Positions 22,789-31,784 of a stretch of DNA of 32,000 bases are shown piece after piece (within the stretch, counting starts at the first letter, position 1; each line of letters begins with the position of its first letter). The notes beneath the pieces are model-generated. The model had not been told where the DNA came from. It did no database searches and saw only the letters and a list, made by a program, of their open reading frames with translations. A program made the position numbers and the translations under genes. This DNA comes from Erysipelotrichaceae bacterium OH741_COT-311 (GTDB taxonomy: Bacteria; Bacillota_I; Bacilli_A; Erysipelotrichales; Erysipelotrichaceae). The stretch is taken from positions 30,001-62,000 of the forward strand of contig RQZE01000005.1 of assembly GCA_003858585.1 (NCBI GenBank), written 5' to 3'.

Positions 22789-22802
22789 TCAGCTTTTTTT
22801 TA
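22778..22802. terminator. Terminator shared by convergent ATP-grasp and sortase genes
   Basis: AAGCTGA-ATAA-TCAGCTT followed by a run of about 9 T. It overlaps both stop codons. Confidence 0.7.
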
Positions 22803-23472
22803 TACCCACAACAAGCAAACGCTCTTCATCATTGCTAGGATTGCAAGTTACTAATGTAATCATACCTTTGACACTTGAAACATCTACATTCAAATCAAAC
22901 ATAGTATATTCACTTAAATTCATTAATAGCTTCTTAAACAATTCTGCATGTTCAAAATGTGTCTCAAAGATCATCGCATCATACTCTTGATGAACATTAA
23001 TCATAAATACATACGCAAGCTCATACTCTTGATCTTGATATGAAATACGAGGGTGCGCTTTTATAAATTCATAATCGACATACTTCATTAAAGAAGTAAA
23101 AACCAAATTTTTCTTTTTACTGGAATGTCCATATAAAATAATATTACTAGCCTCATCATCAACCCTGTAATCTTGAAACACGGTACCATATACATTATAA
23201 TTACCATCTAAATCTTGATGTACATAATCAATATTGTTTTCAGTTTGGACCACAACTTCATCTATCACTCCATCAATAAAAACTCTTCCTACAATATCCG
23301 GATTCCAAGCCTTTGCTTTTTCAACCTCAAAGTTTTGATCATAATCCATATACTCTTTAATTTTTTTATTATACTGCTTCATATCATATTTTACTTGTTG
23401 TTGATGATAAAACCAAAAACCACCTAATAATAAACCAATCAAGATTCCAATCTTAACTAAAACCTTAGTCAT
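22789..23472 (-). CDS. srtB: Class B sortase
   Basis: N-terminal TM anchor, NPDIVG..FIDG..D..VVQ motif, LYGHS (His), TLVTC (catalytic Cys) and a downstream Arg (ERLLVVG). The ATG follows the adhesin TAA directly, in the same frame. Confidence 0.8.
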   Translation of the reverse strand: MTKVLVKIGILIGLLLGGFWFYHQQQVKYDMKQYNKKIKEYMDYDQNFEVEKAKAWNPDIVGRVFIDGVIDEVVVQTENNIDYVHQDLDGNYNVYGTVFQDYRVDDEASNIILYGHSSKKKNLVFTSLMKYVDYEFIKAHPRISYQDQEYELAYVFMINVHQEYDAMIFETHFEHAELFKKLLMNLSEYTMFDLNVDVSSVKGMITLVTCNPSNDEERLLVVGIKKS

Positions 23473-25800
23473 TTAAACACCCATCTTAGGAACAATGGGA
23501 TATTCAGGATTATAAGGATCCACCTCTATCTTTTGATTATAAAGTTTTAGAATTGCAGTATTTTCCTGCTCACTTGGTTTTAAAACTTGCTCAATACACG
23601 TAGAATCTAAGTGATAGCCACTAGGAGCCTTCACTTCACACACCTTCACTTTATCTCCATAAACCAGATCAGCAAGCGAAACAATACCCTTAGAAACCCT
23701 TGTTTGATATACAAGAGAATCGTCTGCTTTTTTATAGTAATAAGTCCCTTCTTTTAACGCTAAGATGATTTGTCCTTGTTCATCGGTAGTATGTATAGTA
23801 CTATTATTAAAATTTATTTCATCACTTACCAGATACTTTGTATTAGGTTGCCCATGAATGGTAAGCATACCTGTATAATAATCCCCAAGATACGTATCAT
23901 TAACATAGACTTGTAAACGAGCCAAATCCAATAAGGAATGATACTTACGATCTAATTTTTCAATTTCAACTTGAACTCTTCGCTTACGGTTTAAACTTGT
24001 AACGACATACTCAACATCCTTAACATCATTTACCTCAATCGTTTCACATACTTCTTCTGAAAGATCATAACCCTCTTTTGGTTTTATTTCACAGATCTGA
24101 TAACGACGTCCCCACTTTAAATCCTCTACCAAAAGATAACCTTCTTTTTTATCTTGTTGAAATTTACCTTGATAATCTAAATACTTATAATATATGACAT
24201 CCTGAGTAAACTTATCTATCTTTATAACACCATACTCATCACTTACTCTTTTTTCAATTAAGATGGTACGCTCTTCATCTTCATAAAATGAAACTTCTAC
24301 AAAAGGGATTGGTCTATTATGATTCTTTAAATCAAGTGTACGCAAGTAATAATTACCGGTAGCACCTTGAAACAAAATTGGATTCTCTTTTGGATAAGGC
24401 ATTGTATACGTATTGGTTGCCTGCATATCCACACGATAATGCATAAGATATCCATCATAATCAATATCAAAATAACCATCCTTTAGACCAATGATACGAT
24501 TACCATCTACACGATATAAATCACTCTCTTTAAAATAAACAATATCATCCTCTTCCACCACTAACTCCTTAAAAACAGTTAAAACTTTAGAAGATGCTGC
24601 AACCATACTTTCTTCCACTTCATCCGTAACATCTTTTACACTAAAATAAGTATCATTTAAGTATAACGATTGATCTTCAATATCCTTTTTAACAATCTTT
24701 ACATCGACATTCACTACTTGATTCACCATTTGAATTGTAGTCAGTTCATTTGCCTTAATTTCAAAAGAATAAATCGTTGGATTAATCAAATAAGGAAACG
24801 ATGTTTGTAACTCTTTTATATAATAAGTACCTGGAGGTAAATATTGATGTAAACTCACTACATCTTCTCCATTTGTATGTAATACCTTAATTAATTCTGT
24901 AGCCTGTTCATCTTTATAAATACCAAACTGATGAAATCCTTTCGCTACCTTTTGAAATTCATCTACTTTGACAACTTTTAAATCACCGGTAATTAGTTTT
25001 ACCTGAAAATGAAAGGATGTCGATGGCTTCGCATTACTAGCCAAAAACACAGCTTGTGAGTTCGGTTTTCCATACACGATATTGGTATGCAATTGATCTT
25101 GATTAGATGAAAACTGATAGTGTTTTTGATACTCTAACTGATTAATCTTAATGGATAATTGATTTTGTTTCGCTATAAGATTAGGATGTTGAATTGGAAA
25201 ACTACTTAACACTCGATTATGATCCTCTATTATATACGCTTCATTAAAAGGAACTTCAATCGTTTGATTATGAAAACTAGGTAATTGATCTCCTTGATGC
25301 ATAGAAGCTACTATCTCTTGTTTCTTTTCTTCTAAATGATACGTAGATAAATCTTTATACAAAGCCTCTCCATAATAGCCAAGAGCTTCCCATATCAATA
25401 CTTGCGTTGCTGCATAATAATCTTCACCATAACGATTATAGTTACCATAACCATGATGCGTAATCTTCCAAAGCTCACGCTTAGTATTTTCATTTAAATA
25501 TTCATAATCTTCATAATAACCATCACCAAACTTTGCATTGATCATTGGATCTAAACAATAAACCACTTCACCATTTAACTCCATAATCGTTATATACGAT
25601 AATTTACCATTAATACGATAACGACCAATTGTTTTATGTTTGTGCAATGACGCATTATAAAAAGAACTCTCTTGATGAAACAACTTCTCAAACGCTTCAT
25701 AAGATTCAAACTCTGTAATATGCACCTCTTGTGCAAAAGCACGCTGGAATGGAAATAAAATCAGCATACACATCCATATCCATACAATTTTAAATTTCAT
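23473..25800 (-). CDS. Secreted surface adhesin: N-terminal possible thioester (Cys-Gln, TQxx-W) domain plus repeated SpaA/Cna-B-type domains
   Basis: Signal peptide (..FQRAFA-QE), VYCLDP (Cys82) and AATQVLIWE (Gln133). Repeated stalk motifs are YYIKELQTSFPY, YQICEIKPKEGYDL and VKVCEVKAPSGYHL. There is no C-terminal LPXTG/TM/charged tail; the protein ends ..NPEYPIVPKMGV. Confidence 0.8.
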   Translation of the reverse strand: MKFKIVWIWMCMLILFPFQRAFAQEVHITEFESYEAFEKLFHQESSFYNASLHKHKTIGRYRINGKLSYITIMELNGEVVYCLDPMINAKFGDGYYEDYEYLNENTKRELWKITHHGYGNYNRYGEDYYAATQVLIWEALGYYGEALYKDLSTYHLEEKKQEIVASMHQGDQLPSFHNQTIEVPFNEAYIIEDHNRVLSSFPIQHPNLIAKQNQLSIKINQLEYQKHYQFSSNQDQLHTNIVYGKPNSQAVFLASNAKPSTSFHFQVKLITGDLKVVKVDEFQKVAKGFHQFGIYKDEQATELIKVLHTNGEDVVSLHQYLPPGTYYIKELQTSFPYLINPTIYSFEIKANELTTIQMVNQVVNVDVKIVKKDIEDQSLYLNDTYFSVKDVTDEVEESMVAASSKVLTVFKELVVEEDDIVYFKESDLYRVDGNRIIGLKDGYFDIDYDGYLMHYRVDMQATNTYTMPYPKENPILFQGATGNYYLRTLDLKNHNRPIPFVEVSFYEDEERTILIEKRVSDEYGVIKIDKFTQDVIYYKYLDYQGKFQQDKKEGYLLVEDLKWGRRYQICEIKPKEGYDLSEEVCETIEVNDVKDVEYVVTSLNRKRRVQVEIEKLDRKYHSLLDLARLQVYVNDTYLGDYYTGMLTIHGQPNTKYLVSDEINFNNSTIHTTDEQGQIILALKEGTYYYKKADDSLVYQTRVSKGIVSLADLVYGDKVKVCEVKAPSGYHLDSTCIEQVLKPSEQENTAILKLYNQKIEVDPYNPEYPIVPKMGV

Positions 25801-25861
25801 ACTATCACCTCAACCATTTATAGTAATAAAAAATAAAATACCCAATATTCTCGCTTAGATA

Positions 25862-25890
25862 TTGCATTTCACCGATAAATTTGATAATAT
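25862..25890 (+). promoter_or_regulatory. Sigma-A-type promoter for tRNA-Leu (TTGCAT-17 bp-TAATAT)
   Basis: -35 at 25862-25867 and -10 at 25885-25890, about 14 nt upstream of the mature tRNA 5' end. Confidence 0.5.
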
Positions 25891-25903
25891 GATTAAGCAA
25901 GTT

Positions 25904-25986
25904 GCGGATGTGGCGAAATTGGCAGACGCACTAGACTTAGGATCTAGCGGGTAACCATGGGGGTTCGAGTCCCTTCATCCGCACCA
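25904..25986 (+). tRNA. tRNA-Leu, anticodon UAG, class II (long variable arm), CCA encoded
   Basis: Acceptor GCGGATG/CATCCGC and anticodon stem CTAGA/TCTAG with loop CTTAGGA (anticodon TAG). The variable arm is CGGGTAACCAT, the T-loop is TTCGAGT and the 3' end is ACCA. Confidence 0.92.
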
Positions 25987-26034
25987 TTATTAGTAAATGC
26001 AAAAGCCTTAAAAACAGGCTTAAAACTTGTAAAA

Positions 26035-26057
26035 CCCTTTATTTAAGGGCTTTTTTT
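26035..26057 (+). terminator. Terminator after the tRNA
   Basis: CCCTT-TATTT-AAGGG, then C and TTTTTTT. It is preceded by a second hairpin, AAGCCT..AGGCTT (26003-26021). Confidence 0.5.
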
Positions 26058-26147
26058 ATGTTATAAAGTAACCAAGGAATAGTCTAGGAATATCCTAGAA
26101 AATCTAATTTTTTTTCGACTCTCTGTTCGACTCTGCTTTTTTATTAT

Positions 26148-26169
26148 AAAAACTACCTTTCGGTAGCTT
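26148..26169 (-). terminator. Terminator of the 5-gene operon
   Basis: On the minus-strand RNA, AGCUACC-GAAA-GGUAGUU forms 7 bp including one G-U with a GNRA loop, followed by a U-run. It overlaps the stop codon of the ParB-like gene. Confidence 0.65.
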
Positions 26170-26680
26170 ATATTTTATTTTTTGATTTAAATTCTTCCCA
26201 GCTTTTTGAGAATTCGTGATCCATGAAAGCAGACTTTAAACCACTTATCTGTTTCAAACGAATCAACTCTTCTGCGTCCATGCCAAGTTGCTTTGCAATT
26301 TGTTCATCTGTCCAACCGCTATTTATTAAATCGACAACGATGTCAGACATATTTCTTATTTGATGCGTTCCTCTTGCACGATTGTGTCTGATGGTGCTGG
26401 CCATGCGATTTTCTAATGGCTTATCAATAATCGTTGCAGGTATTGCATCGATATTGAGTTTCTTTCCTACTGTGAATCGATGAAAACCATCAACAATAAT
26501 GTACTTATCTTTATTAGAGTCATAATATACAACAATAGGCATTGTATACCCATCTTCTTTTATTGACAATTCAAGAAGTTTCATTTCAGGAGTCGCTACT
26601 TTGTTTGGATTATAATCATTCGCTTCGATTTTATCCATGGGGATCATTTTTAAATTCATTACAGGGAATTGTATTTTCAT
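26168..26680 (-). CDS. ParB/Srx-fold N-terminal domain protein, IbrB-like
   Basis: 170 aa with KIEANDYNPN and VDGFHR motifs of the ParB N-terminal (Srx-like) domain and a C-terminal HTH-like segment (TDEQIAKQLGM). There is a 4-nt ATGA overlap with the GNAT gene. Confidence 0.75.
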   Translation of the reverse strand: MKIQFPVMNLKMIPMDKIEANDYNPNKVATPEMKLLELSIKEDGYTMPIVVYYDSNKDKYIIVDGFHRFTVGKKLNIDAIPATIIDKPLENRMASTIRHNRARGTHQIRNMSDIVVDLINSGWTDEQIAKQLGMDAEELIRLKQISGLKSAFMDHEFSKSWEEFKSKNKI

Positions 26681-27084
26681 AATAATTCTGCCCTCATTTT
26701 CTTATATTTCACATATTCATATATTGTTTGAAATCCATACTTTTCAAACAACTTAGAATATTGCATTGTAGCTACAACGTTAATTGCATCTACCTTATTT
26801 TCCTTAGCAAAATCAATTTGCTTTTTTAATAATTTAGCACCTAGTCCGTTTCCTCTTTCACTTCCGACAACATATAAATAACCGATATAAAAACCGTCTT
26901 TTCTTGAATAATTAGAACAGAAACCTATTACTTTGTTGTCTTTATATGCAACGAACCAAACTTGGCTTGAATCAGTAATAATAGGCTCACCAAGTTCTTT
27001 TATAACAGACTTGTTGGTGATAAGCTCACCTAAGTCTTTATAAAAGTTCTTATCATCATTCTGCATTTTCACTATTTTCGCCAT
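26677..27084 (-). CDS. GNAT-family N-acetyltransferase
   Basis: 135 aa with acetyl-CoA motif A (YVVGSERGNGLGAKLL). AGAGG SD lies 8 nt upstream, and the start overlaps the upstream gene by 29 nt. Confidence 0.8.
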   Translation of the reverse strand: MAKIVKMQNDDKNFYKDLGELITNKSVIKELGEPIITDSSQVWFVAYKDNKVIGFCSNYSRKDGFYIGYLYVVGSERGNGLGAKLLKKQIDFAKENKVDAINVVATMQYSKLFEKYGFQTIYEYVKYKKMRAELL

Positions 27085-28339
27085 ATAATTTACCTCTCGC
27101 TTTCGTTACTTTCTCATCTATATCGACTAAATCCATTATCTTGTTATATTTTTCTTGGATTTGTCTTAAGTACTCATATCCTTTTTTAGTTTCTGCAAAG
27201 TACAAGCTCTTAAACCAAAAGTCATTTTTTTCGATGGCTTTAGCAATTAGTCTCCAGGAACAATAATCAGCATTGCCTTTAGTTCCTTCAATATCATCGT
27301 CAGTGACTGGATTTCCTTTTTTGACATTATGCCAATACAGTGTTCTTTCTATCTTCTCTGAATAATGTTTCATGATTTCAGGCGAATATAGACCAATTGA
27401 TTCTAATAAGAACATGCTATATTCTTCCCAAGTCATATGTTTTGGTTTGCAAGTACCAAGATGACCTAATAACTTAGTTCTACAATATAACGACCCCATA
27501 TTCGCACCTGAGACACGATTCAATAATTTTTCCCATGTTTCAGGTTCAATCGCTTTAAATTGGTCTAGTCCTTGTCTTTGATCTAATCCAAACGGCTGAC
27601 AAAGTCTTTGCTCATGAATCGATAATCCGTTTTTATACATCAATTCATAAACTTCATTGAACATTAGATCATACTTTGCTACTGCACCCCATACATCTTC
27701 TGTACGCCAATCATAAAGAGGATAGAAGTTATATACATTATCACAGATTTTAGTAGTCCAGTTTAAATTGTTGTATGTTTCTTTTTTAGATTGAGCAATC
27801 GTTCTGAATCGATTTAAGCTTTCATCAGAACGAATGCCAACACCAACTGCAACTGTTCCTCCGTGATGTTCCTGGTACCATTTTGAAAATAGTTTGGTGA
27901 AGTCGAAATCTTCCATTCCATCAAAATAGAAATCGAAAGGACAATTGTCTCTATTAATAATTTCTGCTCCTGTTGGCATTTCACGAACCCATAATTCTTT
28001 TTTGGTATGGTCCCATGTAATCCATTCAGGATCAAACATTGATACTCCGTTGTCCTCGTTCCACTCCAAGCAGCAATGATAGAATTTTCTAATCATGCTT
28101 AGTTGTTTAAGTTCTTCTATATGTTGCATAGTTAAGCTGTATTGTGCTTCAAAATCCATAAAAAGAACATCGTACTTTTTGTTTTTCTTTTTTGCTACTA
28201 TATTTGCTAATTGCACCATGACAGATGAATCTTTCCCGCCACTTACAGAAAAGTATACATTGTCAAAATTATCAAAAACATATTCCATTCTTTCAAAGAA
28301 TGCATCTAATACATTTTTTTCTAAGTATATCTTTCCCAT
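27056..28339 (-). CDS. PAPS-reductase-family PP-loop ATP pyrophosphatase, IbrA-like (N-terminal PAPS_reduct domain plus a C-terminal extension resembling DUF3440)
   Basis: 427 aa with the SVSGGKDS PP-loop near the N-terminus. The size and the adjacent ParB-like partner match the IbrA/IbrB architecture. The DUF3440 assignment is from memory of the family, not from a search. Confidence 0.7.
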   Translation of the reverse strand: MGKIYLEKNVLDAFFERMEYVFDNFDNVYFSVSGGKDSSVMVQLANIVAKKKNKKYDVLFMDFEAQYSLTMQHIEELKQLSMIRKFYHCCLEWNEDNGVSMFDPEWITWDHTKKELWVREMPTGAEIINRDNCPFDFYFDGMEDFDFTKLFSKWYQEHHGGTVAVGVGIRSDESLNRFRTIAQSKKETYNNLNWTTKICDNVYNFYPLYDWRTEDVWGAVAKYDLMFNEVYELMYKNGLSIHEQRLCQPFGLDQRQGLDQFKAIEPETWEKLLNRVSGANMGSLYCRTKLLGHLGTCKPKHMTWEEYSMFLLESIGLYSPEIMKHYSEKIERTLYWHNVKKGNPVTDDDIEGTKGNADYCSWRLIAKAIEKNDFWFKSLYFAETKKGYEYLRQIQEKYNKIMDLVDIDEKVTKARGKLYGENSENAE

Positions 28340-29658
28340 AACGCTTGAAGTTCCTTTCTAGTGTCAATTGTTTTGTTATTTTTAATCGCATTGATTTCTT
28401 TAGTTAATTCTATTATGAAATTGACTTTTTTATCAATGCTTTTATTTATTATAGATTCAATCCCTGCTTCAGTGCAAATTTGAATATATTTGCACTCCTT
28501 ATCTTGACCTATTCTATGTATTCTATCTTCTGATTGAATGCGTTTAGAATAATCAAAAGTTAAATTCATGTAGATGATGATATTTGATTCTTGAAGATTC
28601 AATGAAAACGCCCCCGTTCCATAAGTGATTAATAGAACCCCATTCGCTGATGCTTTCCAATTTCTTAAATTTATACTTCTATCGTGTAAACTGTATCGTC
28701 CACTATACTCAAACGTTTCAATTCCATTGGCTTTTATCATTTTTTTAGCTTTATTTAATGAATCAATAAATTTAAAGTAAATTATCTTTCTTCCTTTTAA
28801 ATTTTCGATTACATCTAACATTTCAAAATATTTATTATCGCTTAGATCACATATATGTTGCAATACGGTGTACATAGAGAAGATTACACCTTCCTGGACA
28901 TAATCGCAATCAATTATTCTGTCTAAATAGAAACTTTTAAATTTATAGTAATCATCTTTAGACAACAAATCCATGTAAGTATATAGAGTGTGTTGTTCTT
29001 TTGGAGGTAACGTCAAGCATTCATACTTTTTAACTTGATAGGTGTAATGAATTATTTTTGATGTTAAATAGTCTAAATTATGACTCTTTTTAACATATAA
29101 ACCGCCTTTATCAAGTTCTAAATGTTTTTTAACAAACTGATTATATGATGGATAGCCTAGAATTCTAGGATCTAAGAAGTTAAATTGTGCATATAAATCT
29201 CCTGCGTGTTTAGGGGTCGGTGTTCCTGTCATGATAAATTTATATTTTACTTTCTTAGAAATAGCTAACATTCTATCTGTTCTTTTGCTTTTTATGTTTT
29301 TTATGAAGTGGGACTCATCAAGGACAAGCATTGTTTTTTCATCAATACTGTTAAACATCTTAAGATATTTTGCATCGCTACTTTGAATTGTTTCGTATGC
29401 GTATAATTCAAAATTAGGAATAATCTTGAAATGTTTTTTGAATTCCATATAGATGTTTTCTTTTGTTGTAAAAGGGCAAATAAATACAAGTTTATTTACT
29501 TTGTTTTTTCTGTATTTATAATCAAATACCTCGAATATAGTTCTTGTTTTACCTGTTCCCATATCCATGAACAAAGCTCCCACTTTTAAATCTTTTAGTT
29601 TAAGAAAAGCTACTTCTTGATGTTGAAGTAGCTTTGTATGAAAGTTATTATTCATCAT
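28321..29658 (-). CDS. Minimal SNF2-family (superfamily 2) ATPase/translocase
   Basis: 445 aa with motif I DMGTGKTRT, motif II LDESHFIKN and motif VI QSEDRIHRIGQ. No accessory domains are recognisable. Confidence 0.8.
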   Translation of the reverse strand: MMNNNFHTKLLQHQEVAFLKLKDLKVGALFMDMGTGKTRTIFEVFDYKYRKNKVNKLVFICPFTTKENIYMEFKKHFKIIPNFELYAYETIQSSDAKYLKMFNSIDEKTMLVLDESHFIKNIKSKRTDRMLAISKKVKYKFIMTGTPTPKHAGDLYAQFNFLDPRILGYPSYNQFVKKHLELDKGGLYVKKSHNLDYLTSKIIHYTYQVKKYECLTLPPKEQHTLYTYMDLLSKDDYYKFKSFYLDRIIDCDYVQEGVIFSMYTVLQHICDLSDNKYFEMLDVIENLKGRKIIYFKFIDSLNKAKKMIKANGIETFEYSGRYSLHDRSINLRNWKASANGVLLITYGTGAFSLNLQESNIIIYMNLTFDYSKRIQSEDRIHRIGQDKECKYIQICTEAGIESIINKSIDKKVNFIIELTKEINAIKNNKTIDTRKELQALWERYT

Positions 29659-30040
29659 CGACTAAATCATCAATGATTGCTATTTCTTTAGCTTGGATTT
29701 TTTCAGGAACACGAGACTTAGGTTTTTCGTAATATTTTCCGACTTCTAACGATGGATTGTAAAATTCATCTTTTATTTCTTCAGGACCAATTATTTTTTC
29801 ATCAATCACTTGATTTTTATTGTATTTTCCTTTTCCGTATTTTTTAAGTTTAAATTCAAATTCATCAGTGAATGAAAAGGATTTTCTATATCCTTTATTT
29901 CCTTCGTCTCTAACCAATCTGGCTGGATGCCAAAAACAATATCCGGCATAGTCACCTTTTGATGGCATCTTAATCAATACCGCTTTAGCTGTTTCAGCTT
30001 CGATGTTTTGTGCGTTGAAATATACTTTTTCCCAGTTCAT
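29648..30040 (-). CDS. Hypothetical Lys-rich protein with an acidic C-terminal tail; first gene of the operon
   Basis: 130-aa ORF with a strong AAGGAG SD 7 nt before the ATG. The tail is IIDDLVDDE. It overlaps the SNF2 gene by 11 nt. No family was recognised. Confidence 0.6.
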   Translation of the reverse strand: MNWEKVYFNAQNIEAETAKAVLIKMPSKGDYAGYCFWHPARLVRDEGNKGYRKSFSFTDEFEFKLKKYGKGKYNKNQVIDEKIIGPEEIKDEFYNPSLEVGKYYEKPKSRVPEKIQAKEIAIIDDLVDDE

Positions 30041-30075
30041 ATTTTTTCTCCTTTTTTTAAATTAAAATATTTAAC

Positions 30076-30124
30076 TTATAAATATTTACATTTATATTAT
30101 AAATATTTTAATTTATTTTGTAAA
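30076..30124 (-). promoter_or_regulatory. Promoter of the 5-gene operon (TTTACA-17 bp-TATAAT, minus strand) overlapped by two phased operator-like repeats
   Basis: -35 at 30124-30119 and -10 at 30101-30096. TTATAAATATTT occurs at 30076-30087 and 30097-30108, 21 bp apart. The first copy contains the 10-bp palindrome TAAATATTTA (30079-30088). Confidence 0.45.
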
Positions 30125-30166
30125 TAGTTTTTATAAACTTTTTAATTTATCTTAGAAATTAAAAAG

Positions 30167-30195
30167 TTGTTTTTTTAAATTTTTAAATTTATAAT
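30167..30195 (+). promoter_or_regulatory. Promoter of the XRE gene (TTGTTT-17 bp-TATAAT)
   Basis: -35 at 30167-30172 and -10 at 30190-30195. GAGG SD at 30216-30219 lies 5 nt before the ATG at 30225. Confidence 0.45.
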
Positions 30196-30224
30196 TAATT
30201 TGAAAAGATAAAAGTGAGGTTAAT

Positions 30225-30437
30225 ATGAAAACTGAGAAGCAAATAAGCACCATATTAGGTTATTTAGGATTAAGCAAAGCCGAATTAGCAAGGCGATTAG
30301 GAATGTCAGCGCAAAATTTTGCTCAAAAAATAAAAAGAGATAACTTCACTAAAGATGAATTAGAACATATAGCTGAAGTATTAAATGTTAAATATCACGC
30401 TTATTTTGAGCTGACAGATGGAACTATCATAAAATAA
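30225..30437 (+). CDS. XRE/Cro-type HTH transcriptional regulator
   Basis: 70 aa with HTH LSKAELARRLGMSAQNFAQKIKR. It is divergent from the 5-gene operon. Confidence 0.8.
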   Translation: MKTEKQISTILGYLGLSKAELARRLGMSAQNFAQKIKRDNFTKDELEHIAEVLNVKYHAYFELTDGTIIK

Positions 30438-30443
30438 AAAAAG

Positions 30444-30480
30444 ACCTACCCACTACATAAAATAGTGAGTAGGTTATTTT
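30444..30480. terminator. Bidirectional terminator separating the lysis cassette from the XRE gene
   Basis: 12-bp stem ACCTACCCACTA / TAGTGAGTAGGT (one mismatch) with a 7-nt loop, an A-run upstream and a T-run downstream. Confidence 0.75.
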
Positions 30481-30811
30481 ATTTATCTAAAGCTTTGATT
30501 TTTGTATCAATAGCTTTGTCTAGTTGTTCCTGAGCATACGCCTGCATTGCGTTGAACGTGTTTTGAACTAACTGTTCAATCACTTTCTTAGTAAAGATAA
30601 ATTTTAGAAAAGATGGCACTAAATTATAGATTTTATCGACTACCATGTTAAATTTCTCAGTTCCAGCTTTCGCATAGTCTTTGTAGTATTGCTCTGCTGC
30701 TAAAATCCATCTAACAACCAAAGTCTTTAGATTTGATTTAGTCTTGAAGTAGCTAACTAAAAATCCGAATAATACTGTAATAATTGCGATAATAACTTGA
30801 TTAATGTTCAT
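30479..30811 (-). CDS. Phage holin, LL-H-like family
   Basis: 110 aa with a single N-terminal TM helix (VIIAIITVLFGFLVSYF), then an AAEQ...G.EK segment as in LL-H-type holins. It lies next to the endolysin. Confidence 0.55.
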   Translation of the reverse strand: MNINQVIIAIITVLFGFLVSYFKTKSNLKTLVVRWILAAEQYYKDYAKAGTEKFNMVVDKIYNLVPSFLKFIFTKKVIEQLVQNTFNAMQAYAQEQLDKAIDTKIKALDK

Positions 30812-31148
30812 TGTGTTTTCCTCCTCGATTATTTAAAACATCGATTACTTTTTCTACTTGTTCTAATCGATGTTGGTTTAATGTAACTATCTTTGATAGT
30901 TCGTCTAACTCTTTTCCGTGAGTTGTTGCTCTGTTTCCTATGCGATCAATTTCTGCTTTATAAAACTTCAATGTAGTGTTGATCTCGGCAATAGTTGTAT
31001 TTAACTTGCTAACACTATCATTAAAAGTCTTAGTTATAACCGCAAACTCATTGGCTTGCTTTTTTGCGTCATCCCGGATTTTTAAATACAAGCCAAAGAT
31101 ACCAGCTAATAAGGCAACAACTGCCGATACAATTCCGATTGTTTCCAT
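30801..31148 (-). CDS. Membrane-anchored coiled-coil protein (lysis-cassette accessory, function unknown)
   Basis: 115 aa with an N-terminal TM (IGIVSAVVALLAGIFGLYL) and a heptad-rich remainder. It lies between the endolysin and the holin. Confidence 0.5.
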   Translation of the reverse strand: METIGIVSAVVALLAGIFGLYLKIRDDAKKQANEFAVITKTFNDSVSKLNTTIAEINTTLKFYKAEIDRIGNRATTHGKELDELSKIVTLNQHRLEQVEKVIDVLNNRGGKHNEH

Positions 31149-31154
31149 GCTCTC

Positions 31155-31784
31155 TTAATTCACCTTTTCTATTAGTAACCAACTGCCATCCCATCCTAAT
31201 TCTTTTACAATATCATCATGAATCTGTTTAGCTTCAGCTTCTGTTTTTTGATAAAGCGGATTGACTAAGCGCCAGTTATACTTCTTTTCTTCTTCTTTTT
31301 CCGTGTCTTGGCATAATGAAAGGAACTTATTCCAAGTTCCTTCAGCTCTGATACGATGTGGACAATCTTTGCCACTCCAACTGTTATGTTGAACAACATT
31401 TTCAATTGGTATATCAAACTTTTCCATTAACATTTTGACTACTTCAACTGCGTTATGAAATGATTTTTCGTGCTTATTAGTTGAATAATCCGTTGAATAA
31501 CAAATCTCAATACCTATTGATTGTCTATTCCCTTTTCCTTTGCCACCATCACCGCAGTGCCAGGCATTGCGATTAAGCGGAATTGCTTCGATTGCTTCTT
31601 TATCGTCTACGAAAATATGACATGAAGTAGGATTATTATTTCTCTTCATATACGTTACTTCATTACGTGCCGAAGCTTTATTGTAAGTATTATGAATAGT
31701 TATGTATTTAGGTGCCATATCATTGGGGCACTTAAGATACCATTTTTCTCTATTAATATGATCAATTATATAAGGTAATTTCAT
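31155..31784 (-). CDS. N-acetylmuramoyl-L-alanine amidase (Amidase_2/PGRP-type phage endolysin)
   Basis: ITIHNT, AWHCGDG, QSIGIEIC and HNSWSGKDCPHRIR motifs. A short C-terminal domain of about 45 aa has unknown binding specificity. Confidence 0.85.
   Translation of the reverse strand: MKLPYIIDHINREKWYLKCPNDMAPKYITIHNTYNKASARNEVTYMKRNNNPTSCHIFVDDKEAIEAIPLNRNAWHCGDGGKGKGNRQSIGIEICYSTDYSTNKHEKSFHNAVEVVKMLMEKFDIPIENVVQHNSWSGKDCPHRIRAEGTWNKFLSLCQDTEKEEEKKYNWRLVNPLYQKTEAEAKQIHDDIVKELGWDGSWLLIEKVN

Follow-up and report, generated by a model that had tools for sequence, protein, structure and literature searches.

Introduction

The Escherichia coli prophage proteins IbrA and IbrB, the E. coli K-12 pair YbdN/YbdM and the Listeria pair lmo1310/lmo1309 share one core, in which a protein with PAPS_reduct and DUF3440 domains is encoded beside a small ParB_N protein. 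A PAPS-reductase-family ATP pyrophosphatase with a ParB/Srx-fold, DGxHR-type partner is likewise a feature of DndB/DndC, SspD and BrxP, and the Dpd island, which encodes DpdA, ParB-like DpdB and the SNF2-type proteins DpdE and DpdJ, unites a ParB-like ATPase with SNF2 helicases in one DNA-modification context. Here we analyse a five-gene operon that resembles all of these in its parts and that lies in a stretch of 32,000 nucleotides (nt) of Erysipelotrichaceae bacterium OH741_COT-311 (contig RQZE01000005.1, positions 30,001 to 62,000; hereafter the window). It encodes, in this order, a 130-amino-acid (aa) protein (p130), a minimal SNF2-family ATPase, an IbrA-like enzyme, a GNAT acyltransferase and an IbrB-like protein and thus differs from E. 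coli IbrA/IbrB by the GNAT gene set between the pair and by the p130 and SNF2 genes ahead of it. We find that the operon is a mosaic variant of the IbrA/IbrB kind and tentatively favour, with a probability of roughly 0.4, the reading that this phage accessory operon is a modification module that acts on DNA at the expense of ATP and benefits the phage, probably by counter-defence.

Results

The operon belongs to the IbrA/IbrB kind

In Pfam profile searches the 427-aa IbrA-like protein matched DUF3440 (7e-23) and PAPS_reduct (3e-14), both above the cut-offs, and it matched phrog_2302 (2e-83) over its full length (residues 3-400). Phage proteins that bear the annotation IbrA or PAPS reductase share 35-49% identity with it over >90% of its length, the identity to IbrA of Streptococcus thermophilus phages and Escherichia phage PhiR5_2 being 38% over 92-93% of the length, and the closest relative of the window protein (71% identity, L004/L005) stands in the order SNF2–IbrA–GNAT–IbrB, without p130. 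The 170-aa IbrB-like protein matched ParB_N (8e-10) and phrog_2159 (1e-69), its gene was also matched at the DNA level, and by sequence it matches structures of Noc, ParB/Spo0J and the ParB-fold kinase SbnI. A DGFHR motif (VDGFHR) lies in its ParB N-terminal (ParB/Srx) nucleotide-binding domain, and its C-terminal segment TDEQIAKQLGMDAEELIRLKQ appears helix-turn-helix (HTH)-like. All testable features of an IbrA/IbrB pair were found, namely a PAPS_reduct+DUF3440 protein, a co-oriented small ParB_N protein on the same strand and in the same operon (with the GNAT gene between them) and full-length similarity, and by its sequence the cluster belongs to the IbrA/IbrB (YbdN/YbdM) kind. The full-length PHROG matches and the 38% identity to annotated IbrA thereby bear out a kinship that had been proposed in an earlier note on this DNA.

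Sequence comparison and an AlphaFold2 (AF2) model with a predicted local distance difference test score (pLDDT) of 80.7 indicate that the N-terminal domain of the IbrA-like protein is a PP-loop ATP-pyrophosphatase of the PAPS-reductase/CysD/FMN-adenylyltransferase (FMNAT) branch, which is followed by a helical DUF3440 part. The best PDB folds for the model, confined to the N-terminal 240 aa, were PAPS/APS reductases, CysD and FMNAT, followed by TtuA, TilS and NAD synthetases, while the helical DUF3440 half gave no structural match and a sequence search for solved homologues returned none beyond the PP-loop part. Several enzymes of this fold, CysD and FMNAT among them, transfer AMP to an oxyanion. 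Invariant in the IbrA family are SxSGGKDS (FSVSGGKDS in the window protein), D62, E64 and RxxES (R170, E173, S174), and C247, within RLCQP, is nearly invariant; it is the single cysteine so conserved, and no DndC-like cysteine cluster is present in IbrA.

The 445-aa SNF2 protein gave Pfam matches to SNF2-rel_dom (PF00176, 4e-17), Helicase_C (PF00271, 9e-10) and ResIII, matched phrog_62 at 2e-74 and aligned over residues 29-409 with the Sulfolobus SNF2/Rad54 core 1z63 and also with eukaryotic remodellers. With GTGKT, DESH and QSEDRIHRIGQ it shows Walker A, Walker B and motif VI features, in a bare ATPase core that carries no accessory domains and is presumably a double-stranded DNA translocase. 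The 135-aa GNAT protein (Acetyltransf_7/10/1, ~1e-11) contains RGNGLGAKLL and had no phage match in a tblastn search at 1e-5.

Pfam gave no family for p130, which is 100% identical to an NCBI protein of the OH741_COT-311 genome and matched phrog_27058 at 2e-36. Its close homologues number 93 and its cluster representatives 617, almost all being stand-alone proteins of ~125 aa; the phrog_27058 match and the 617 representatives argue that p130 is a real gene family. Its members share an N-terminal domain of ~95 aa that is rich in beta structure and contains an invariant FWH motif, and the translation from the window contains the acidic tail DDLVDDE. In its AF2 model (pLDDT 82.6) an eight-strand beta domain is predicted ahead of a disordered acidic C-terminal tail, and the search with this model returned no PDB fold match, only uncharacterised viral proteins being alike. 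Domain fusions gave no clue to function, as no Pfam domain is present in the extensions of the few members that are longer (207-365 aa), and a 111-aa Streptococcus mutans match of p130 that bears a DUF3440 label looks like a chimeric open reading frame (ORF).

Every motif quoted in the earlier note (SGGKDS, VDGFHR, RGNGLGAKLL, GTGKT, DESH, QSEDRIHRIGQ and the acidic tail) is present in the translations, and the profile searches upheld its family readings of four proteins (SNF2, PAPS_reduct+DUF3440, GNAT and ParB_N). A defence-system search of the five proteins with PADLOC-DB v2.0.0 yielded only partial generic hits (DpdE, ZorD, DndC, BrxP) and matched no system, and the NCBIfam models for DndC, DpdE, ZorD and CysH, from which the family cut-offs were taken, scored the window proteins far below those cut-offs, in agreement with the expectation that no named defence system would be recognised.

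The five genes comprise two sub-modules

We compiled two IbrA-anchored sets of loci, the first derived from viral sequences (88 loci, of which 80 are viral contigs, 3 annotated phage regions and 5 contigs of metagenomic or genomic origin) and the second from genomes (80 genome loci and 8 further contigs); a scan of genome contigs for close relatives gave none with a single IbrA query and succeeded with an alignment-based query. The first set contained IbrA in 87 loci, IbrB in 85, the SNF2 family in 28 (with 5 more in a second SNF2 cluster), GNAT in 10 and the p130 family in 9, and the genome set contained IbrA in 88, IbrB in 81, GNAT in 75, without exception between IbrA and IbrB, and SNF2 in 5. 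A homologous GNAT thus occupies the position that it has in the window in 75 of 88 genome-set loci and ~10 viral loci. IbrA and IbrB are adjacent in 85/87 viral-derived and 81/88 genome-derived loci (~166/175 overall). Of 27 non-redundant SNF2-type loci, 10 have p130 at the upstream side of SNF2 or beside it.

When similarity matrices were compared, IbrA–GNAT (rho 0.90), IbrA–IbrB (rho 0.73) and SNF2–p130 (rho 0.60) showed strong co-variation, at values reached by none of 300 permutations in each case, and IbrA–SNF2 showed weak co-variation (rho 0.195, reached by 6 of 300). Strong co-variation within and weak co-variation between these groups show that the five genes are two sub-modules, a core of IbrA–GNAT–IbrB and a phage-associated p130–SNF2 module, the latter found in phages only. 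The operon is therefore not the fixed stoichiometric unit that its overlapping junctions had suggested, since the two sub-modules co-vary weakly and only the IbrA/IbrB pair is near-universal. It is a mosaic of a p130-type SNF2 module, as in Streptococcus phages, and a GNAT-type core, as in Clostridia; nor is it an unrecognised one-off combination, given the constancy of the pair and the presence of the cassette in several phages.

Other arrangements were seen among the homologous loci. In GNAT-containing phage cassettes a ~375-416-aa protein with a weak phrog_16123 match and no Pfam family replaces p130 upstream of SNF2 (L004 5181-6359, L009 7326-8576, L010 2333-3469, L026 3467-4594, L029 7226-8377 and L168 4411-5598), often with a ~66-82-aa peptide next after it. 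One subtype of IbrA/IbrB, in 13 viral loci, has the order IbrB, a ~140-aa helical protein of no known family, IbrA, and in another a long IbrB (375-400 aa) stands directly ahead of IbrA (examples of other subtypes are L033, L045, L054, L062, L065 and L078, and L031, L038, L047 and others). The ~140-aa protein was considered as a divergent GNAT and rejected at an hhalign probability of 0.1%. In Clostridioides difficile CD160 (L089 3550-14269 / L098) SNF2 lies downstream, in the order IbrA–GNAT–IbrB–137 aa–SNF2, and a 422-aa ParB_N+HNH protein resembling a type IV restriction enzyme is encoded ~5 kb upstream of the cassette.

Phages carry the cassette after the lysin and in early regions

The cassettes of Lactobacillales and Clostridia phages (S. 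thermophilus D4276, CHPC1148 and CHPC1062, the Streptococcus equinus Pika group, phiAQ113 and phiCs5676-1) have the same gene order, overlapping junctions and slot as the window operon, with p130 50-54% and IbrA 35-49% identical, and differ from it in having no GNAT. In S. thermophilus Moineauvirus CHPC1148 and D4276 the genes p130–SNF2–IbrA–IbrB directly follow the lysin and precede the cro/early or integrase region; S. equinus phages, Lactobacillus helveticus phiAQ113 and Clostridium scindens phiCs5676-1 have the cassette in the same post-lysin slot, and the window cassette occupies the same position behind the lysis genes. Among 24 more SNF2-type loci, repeated finds are lysis genes on the upstream side and integrases and CI-type repressors on the downstream side; other loci continue an early operon. 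In the phage records the four genes go by the names hypothetical protein, helicase, PAPS reductase and ParB, and we found no discussion of p130–SNF2–IbrA–IbrB as a unit in published phage genomes; SNF2-linked cassettes are thus already in such genomes, unremarked.

In D4276 (L178 5582-9363; record 24283-28064) an annotated acrIIA5 gene (24283-24705) shares base 24705 with the p130 homologue (24705-25076), SNF2, IbrA and IbrB come next, and the unit lies between the lysin and cro genes. The acrIIA5 gene and the cassette look like one transcription unit, and their abutment makes an anti-defence neighbourhood and early co-transcription likely. We take the S. thermophilus Moineauvirus phages, including D4276, to be virulent. 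The recurrence of the slot agrees with the view, advanced in the earlier note, of the post-lysis position as a classic locus for accessory genes, whereas the adjacency of acrIIA5 and the presumed virulence of these phages weaken the part of that view that saw defence in it.

The commonest neighbours of IbrA/IbrB on viral contigs are SSB, DnaB, ERF, NinG, exonuclease and integrases, and DNA methyltransferases also occur. Many pairs thus lie among replication or recombination genes or just before terminase, which goes part of the way towards the invariable embedding in such modules that, according to the earlier note, would speak against a modification or anti-phage system. In Fusobacterium phage phiFN37 (L001) the cassette is ~1.4 kb from ParB-like, queuine-tRNA-ribosyltransferase and queuosine-precursor-transporter genes, which resemble a 7-deazaguanine DNA-modification set. 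The same phage (3199-10255) has three ParB-like genes within 8 kb and the cassette order helicase–p130–IbrB–IbrA. In Alkalithermobacter thermoalcaliphilus JW-YL-7 (L007 4921-10630, equal to L108; LSFY01000001) IbrA/IbrB lie inside what appears to be a type IV-B CRISPR-Cas-like operon (Csf1, 148 aa, 275 aa, a short cysH-like PAPS_reduct protein, 66 aa, IbrA, IbrB, Csf3) in a prophage, directly upstream of HNH, TerS and TerL; the names Csf1 and Csf3 are precomputed Pfam hits (PF27781, PF27782) and the type IV-B-like reading comes from the literature only.

The core is also chromosomal

Amid ordinary chromosomal genes, an IbrA–GNAT–IbrB triad (~430, 125 and 175 aa) is present at 75 loci of Clostridia genomes (L091, L093, L095, L099-L176; many from uncultured gut Clostridia). 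These triads have no SNF2 and no phage genes and occupy at least five different housekeeping neighbourhoods, among them gatCAB/cotJ, hrcA-grpE-dnaK, HU and aspS, and sortase/pilin and hflX; one of them adjoins a superfamily 1 (SF1) helicase with a DUF2726 domain, and at 13 Clostridia loci the triad comes right after a 92-aa gene, which is HU in the sole locus with Pfam data. HU was rejected as a functional partner, the adjacency being mostly synteny shared by related genomes. The ybdNM genes of E. coli K-12, under the dedicated LysR-type repressor YbdO, are the same gene pair, as are lmo1310/lmo1309 in the Listeria core genome. The pair is accordingly no speciality of prophages.

Operon layout, signals and flanks

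The window's list of ORFs contains the five minus-strand genes, which run from 30040 down to 26168 and overlap by 11, 19, 29 and 4 nt at their junctions, as had been described before (Table 1). A ribosome-binding site, AGGAG, precedes the first ATG by 8 nt, and the promoter candidate (read 30124-30096) sits 56 nt upstream of this ATG. Although this site, the 13-pair terminator and the short 3' hairpin were all found as previously reported, promoter-like sites are no more frequent in the window than in shuffled sequence (38 versus 35.8), so the promoter site alone is weak evidence. The hairpin search called hairpin 26153-26166 on the plus strand; its reading with a minus-strand T-run was made from the sequence itself.

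Table 1. Coordinates of the operon genes, candidate signals and flanking genes in the window.
Feature	Position	Strand	Remarks
p130 (130-aa protein), first gene	29648..30040	-	ORF; partner of SNF2 gene
Minimal SNF2-family ATPase, 445 aa	28321..29658	-	SNF2-rel_dom + Helicase_C
IbrA-like enzyme, 427 aa	27056..28339	-	PAPS_reduct (PF01507) + DUF3440 (PF11922)
Minimal GNAT acyltransferase, 135 aa	26677..27084	-	Acetyltransf_7/10/1; between IbrA and IbrB
IbrB-like protein, 170 aa	26168..26680	-	ParB_N (PF02195)
Candidate SigA/sigma-70-like operon promoter	30096..30124	-	TTTACA-17-TATAAT, 11/12 matches
Candidate operon terminator, short hairpin directly 3' of IbrB stop	26153..26166		on - strand followed by TTTTTATAAT
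Bidirectional terminator hairpin	30444..30474		13-pair stem, then CTTTTTTTAT; parts lysis genes and XRE from operon region
XRE/Cro-CI-type HTH gene, 70 aa	30225..30437	+	HTH_26 4e-06, Phage_CI_repr 2e-05; divergent from operon
Perfect 13-nt inverted repeat, candidate operator	30136..30168 (arms 30136-30148, 30156-30168)		AACTTTTTAATTT N7 AAATTAAAAAGTT; between divergent genes
tRNA-Leu gene	25904..25986	+	marks change to host genes
Amidase_2 endolysin gene	31155-31784		right of operon; Amidase_2 match

The divergent intergenic region also holds three copies of TTATAAATATTT at a 21-nt spacing (30055-30146). These repeats and the inverted repeat are candidate operators, possibly for the XRE protein, and may be chance occurrences in a very AT-rich region. 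The XRE gene, a possible local regulator of the operon, is present in the window as the earlier note had it, but it is no conserved part of the cassette, as a divergent XRE gene is mostly missing from homologous cassettes.

The lysis region (30479-31784) has an unusual order, with Amidase_2 first and then two overlapping ORFs of 115 and 110 aa, which are small, of membrane type and without Pfam family, and are presumed holins. On a contig of another sample that encodes an identical amidase and stops directly behind this gene, tape-measure, Dit and tail genes lie upstream of it; the Amidase_2 match and these tail genes support a siphophage late region. On the other side tRNA-Leu is a possible integration site, and to its left lie sortase and TED/SpaA thioester pilin genes (window 22789-25800). 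Possibly by coincidence, the same sortase and pilin pair flanks an IbrA–GNAT–IbrB triad that is chromosomal and unrelated, in a Clostridia metagenome-assembled genome (L095 7364-9477).

Discussion

A proposed module directed at DNA and serving the phage

Three of the five proteins are in DNA-handling families with intact motifs (the SNF2 core, ParB_N and the PP-loop enzyme), and the PP-loop branch of IbrA includes the DNA-modification enzymes DndC, SspD and BrxP, of which DndC and BrxP were the targets of weak partial PADLOC hits. The earlier idea of a DNA-directed enzymatic machine is therefore plausible in our judgement. That such a module serves the phage is suggested by the near-constant ParB-type partner, the adenylating-branch enzyme, the co-evolving acyltransferase and the phage SNF2 translocase, together with neighbourhoods of DNA metabolism and anti-defence and the retention of the cassette by phages presumed virulent. 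Carriage next to acrIIA5 by these Moineauvirus phages favours a phage function such as counter-defence over defence of a lysogen.

In the mechanism that we propose, IbrB would bind DNA in a nucleotide-gated manner, as ParB, Noc, DndB and DpdB do, and recruit IbrA. At the expense of ATP, IbrA would adenylate a group, an oxyanion or a carbonyl, carried either by a base or the backbone of DNA or by a donor. The activated group might then be exchanged or capped with the help of the GNAT, while the p130–SNF2 pair would move the complex along duplex DNA or expose its target. The phage would gain by having its own DNA, or DNA-bound targets, marked or altered and would so evade restriction by the host or immunity of the CRISPR type. 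Transcribed from its own promoter in a lysogen, the operon could in addition act on host DNA. Whereas the gene set, the domain families, the intact catalytic motifs, the co-inheritance of the parts and the genomic contexts were observed directly, we infer DNA as the substrate, the order of steps and the counter-defence pay-off.

Several points weigh against this reading. Activation of eib gene expression by E. coli IbrA/IbrB is, we presume, the only published phenotype of the family (no eib-like gene lies within the window), and our literature search found no functional study of DUF3440, IbrA or YbdN. Neither donor-biosynthesis nor sulfur-donor genes are present, and IbrA, with its one nearly invariant cysteine, is unlike the Fe-S enzyme DndC. 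The weak co-variation of SNF2 with IbrA means that SNF2 may be a separate travelling function, and the core must have a cell-autonomous role, because triads occur in phage-free housekeeping contexts without a partner nuclease. In addition, an operon with its own promoter beside an XRE gene also fits an accessory gene set (moron) expressed during lysogeny.

A lysogen might indeed express the operon for superinfection exclusion, marking resident DNA or attacking incoming phage DNA, as the earlier note proposed. The position after the lysis genes at the tRNA-proximal end, the separate promoter-like site, the flanking terminators and the divergent XRE gene are as such a function would have them; components of the SNF2, PP-loop and ParB-like types are also found in Dpd, Dnd/Ssp, BREX type 4 and Zorya, as the partial PADLOC hits reflect, and both the ParB_N+HNH protein near the CD160 cassette and the DUF2726 helicase beside one chromosomal triad are compatible with it. 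We nevertheless consider this unlikely: neither a nuclease nor a different effector is encoded in the cassette, none of its proteins is covered by a PADLOC model, S. thermophilus phages taken to be virulent keep the cassette beside an anti-CRISPR gene, many homologues lie within early or replication operons, and chromosomal triads are found among housekeeping genes rather than in defence islands.

Control of gene expression or of the nucleoid has a similarly low standing. IbrB would here be a ParB/KorB-like nucleotide-switched regulator, and IbrA and GNAT would modify a DNA-bound protein, such as a nucleoid protein, or RNA, switching phage or host genes on. This fits the only known phenotype and the chromosomal triads, and homologues bear the database names 'co-activator of prophage gene expression IbrA/IbrB'. 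The dedicated repressor of ybdNM, the status of YbdM as a predicted transcription factor, the Alkalithermobacter pair just upstream of HNH and terminase genes, the usual place of late activators, and the 13 Clostridia triads directly after a 92-aa gene, identified as HU at one locus, point the same way. Yet the strictly conserved catalytic motifs of three enzymes would be left unexplained, the SNF2 translocase has no obvious role in a regulator, and the HU adjacency is largely synteny of related genomes.

It is rather improbable that the operon helps replication, recombination or packaging without covalent marking, p130–SNF2 remodelling DNA or stalled forks with IbrA/IbrB as an associated nucleotide-dependent factor. 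SSB, ERF, DnaB, NinG and exonuclease are frequent neighbours, one cassette (L006) lies between SSB and DnaB and another pair (L007) beside terminase genes, and phrog_62 is a phage 'DNA helicase' family; against this, cassette-bearing phages have a replication module of their own that is complete and separate, the core triad is also found where there are no phage genes, and the post-lysin slot is an accessory region rather than a replication module.

An auxiliary gene of sulfur metabolism (a cysH-type PAPS reductase), as phage papers and annotation pipelines that name these genes PAPS reductase would have it, or a ParB/DUF3440 toxin-antitoxin pair, as TASmania lists lmo1309/lmo1310 through guilt by association, is very improbable and was rejected on family models and architecture, in that the NCBIfam models for CysH, PAPS reductase and APS reductase, with cut-offs of 154-254, give only 20-25 bits, the translation has no ECGLH-type C-terminal CysH motif, the extra DUF3440 and obligate ParB-like partner are foreign to sulfate assimilation, and no known toxin fold is present.

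Returning to the favoured module directed at DNA, we offer a more far-reaching version as a speculative proposal that is possible but doubtful as a whole. IbrA–(GNAT)–IbrB may represent a new class of nucleic-acid modification, in which a ParB-type nucleotide-gated clamp targets a PP-loop adenylating enzyme to place an adenylation-dependent, possibly acylated mark on DNA that is neither a phosphorothioate nor a 7-deazaguanine; phages would have added the p130–SNF2 translocase and would use the system beside anti-CRISPRs against immunity, while E. coli (ybdNM), Listeria and many Clostridia would use the core on their own chromosomes.

The IbrA family comprises at least 4,216 protein clusters at E<=1e-20 and extends to hundreds of cultured phages, gut Clostridia, E. 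coli K-12 and the Listeria core genome, its biochemistry being uncharacterised. Phage studies routinely report its genes as sulfur-assimilation auxiliary metabolic genes, an annotation that our data oppose because of the ParB-like DNA-binding partner, the frequent presence of GNAT and SNF2 and the failure of the CysH models. The window operon, one more mosaic variant, draws attention to an uncharacterised and very large system for which the mis-annotation cysH is common. The hypothesis of counter-defence through a new DNA-directed modification is testable by way of the fixed post-lysin position, the abutment of acrIIA5 in D4276 and the core in E. coli and Listeria, with D4276 and its acrIIA5 (genetic tools presumably exist for this phage), E. 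coli ybdNM and Listeria lmo1309/1310 as experimental handles.

Comparison with known systems

The DndC model TIGR03183 scores the window IbrA at 28.7 bits versus a cut-off of 290.4, the PADLOC match to DndC spans only ~62 residues, and DndA/cysteine desulfurase, DndD, DndE, SspABC and PglZ partners are absent from the five proteins and their neighbours. The window IbrA has one conserved cysteine, and DUF3440 is absent from the DndC, SspD and BrxP enzymes. For BREX type 4, the BrxP match covers 82 residues at 27 bits, and neither PglZ nor BrxC is encoded in the block. DpdE is the best partial PADLOC hit for the window SNF2 (2.5e-18), though as a match to the SNF2 core only; NCBIfam DpdE scores it at 17 bits against a cut-off of 500, its 445 aa compare with ~1000-1300 aa for DpdE, and no DpdA/TGT or preQ0 genes are found in the window.

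The cysH-like accessory protein of type IV-B CRISPR-Cas, for which DNA or RNA modification has been proposed, is likewise a PP-loop, PAPS-reductase-like and uncharacterised protein on mobile elements, but it has ~258 aa, no DUF3440 and no obligate ParB partner, and the window has no csf genes. CysH models score the window IbrA at 21.9 versus a cut-off of 254 (TIGR02057), 20.4 versus 165 (TIGR00434) and 25.5 versus 154 (PRK02090), and the similarity to the CysH fold is confined to the nucleotide-binding core. These results place the cluster outside Dnd/Ssp, BREX type 4, Dpd and CysH. By analogy it may nonetheless work as DndB/DndC or DpdB-type systems do, with a ParB-fold protein and a nucleotide-consuming modification enzyme acting together. 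It is not unique, but a mosaic variant, p130–SNF2 joined to a GNAT-containing core, of the known, uncharacterised IbrA/IbrB kind.

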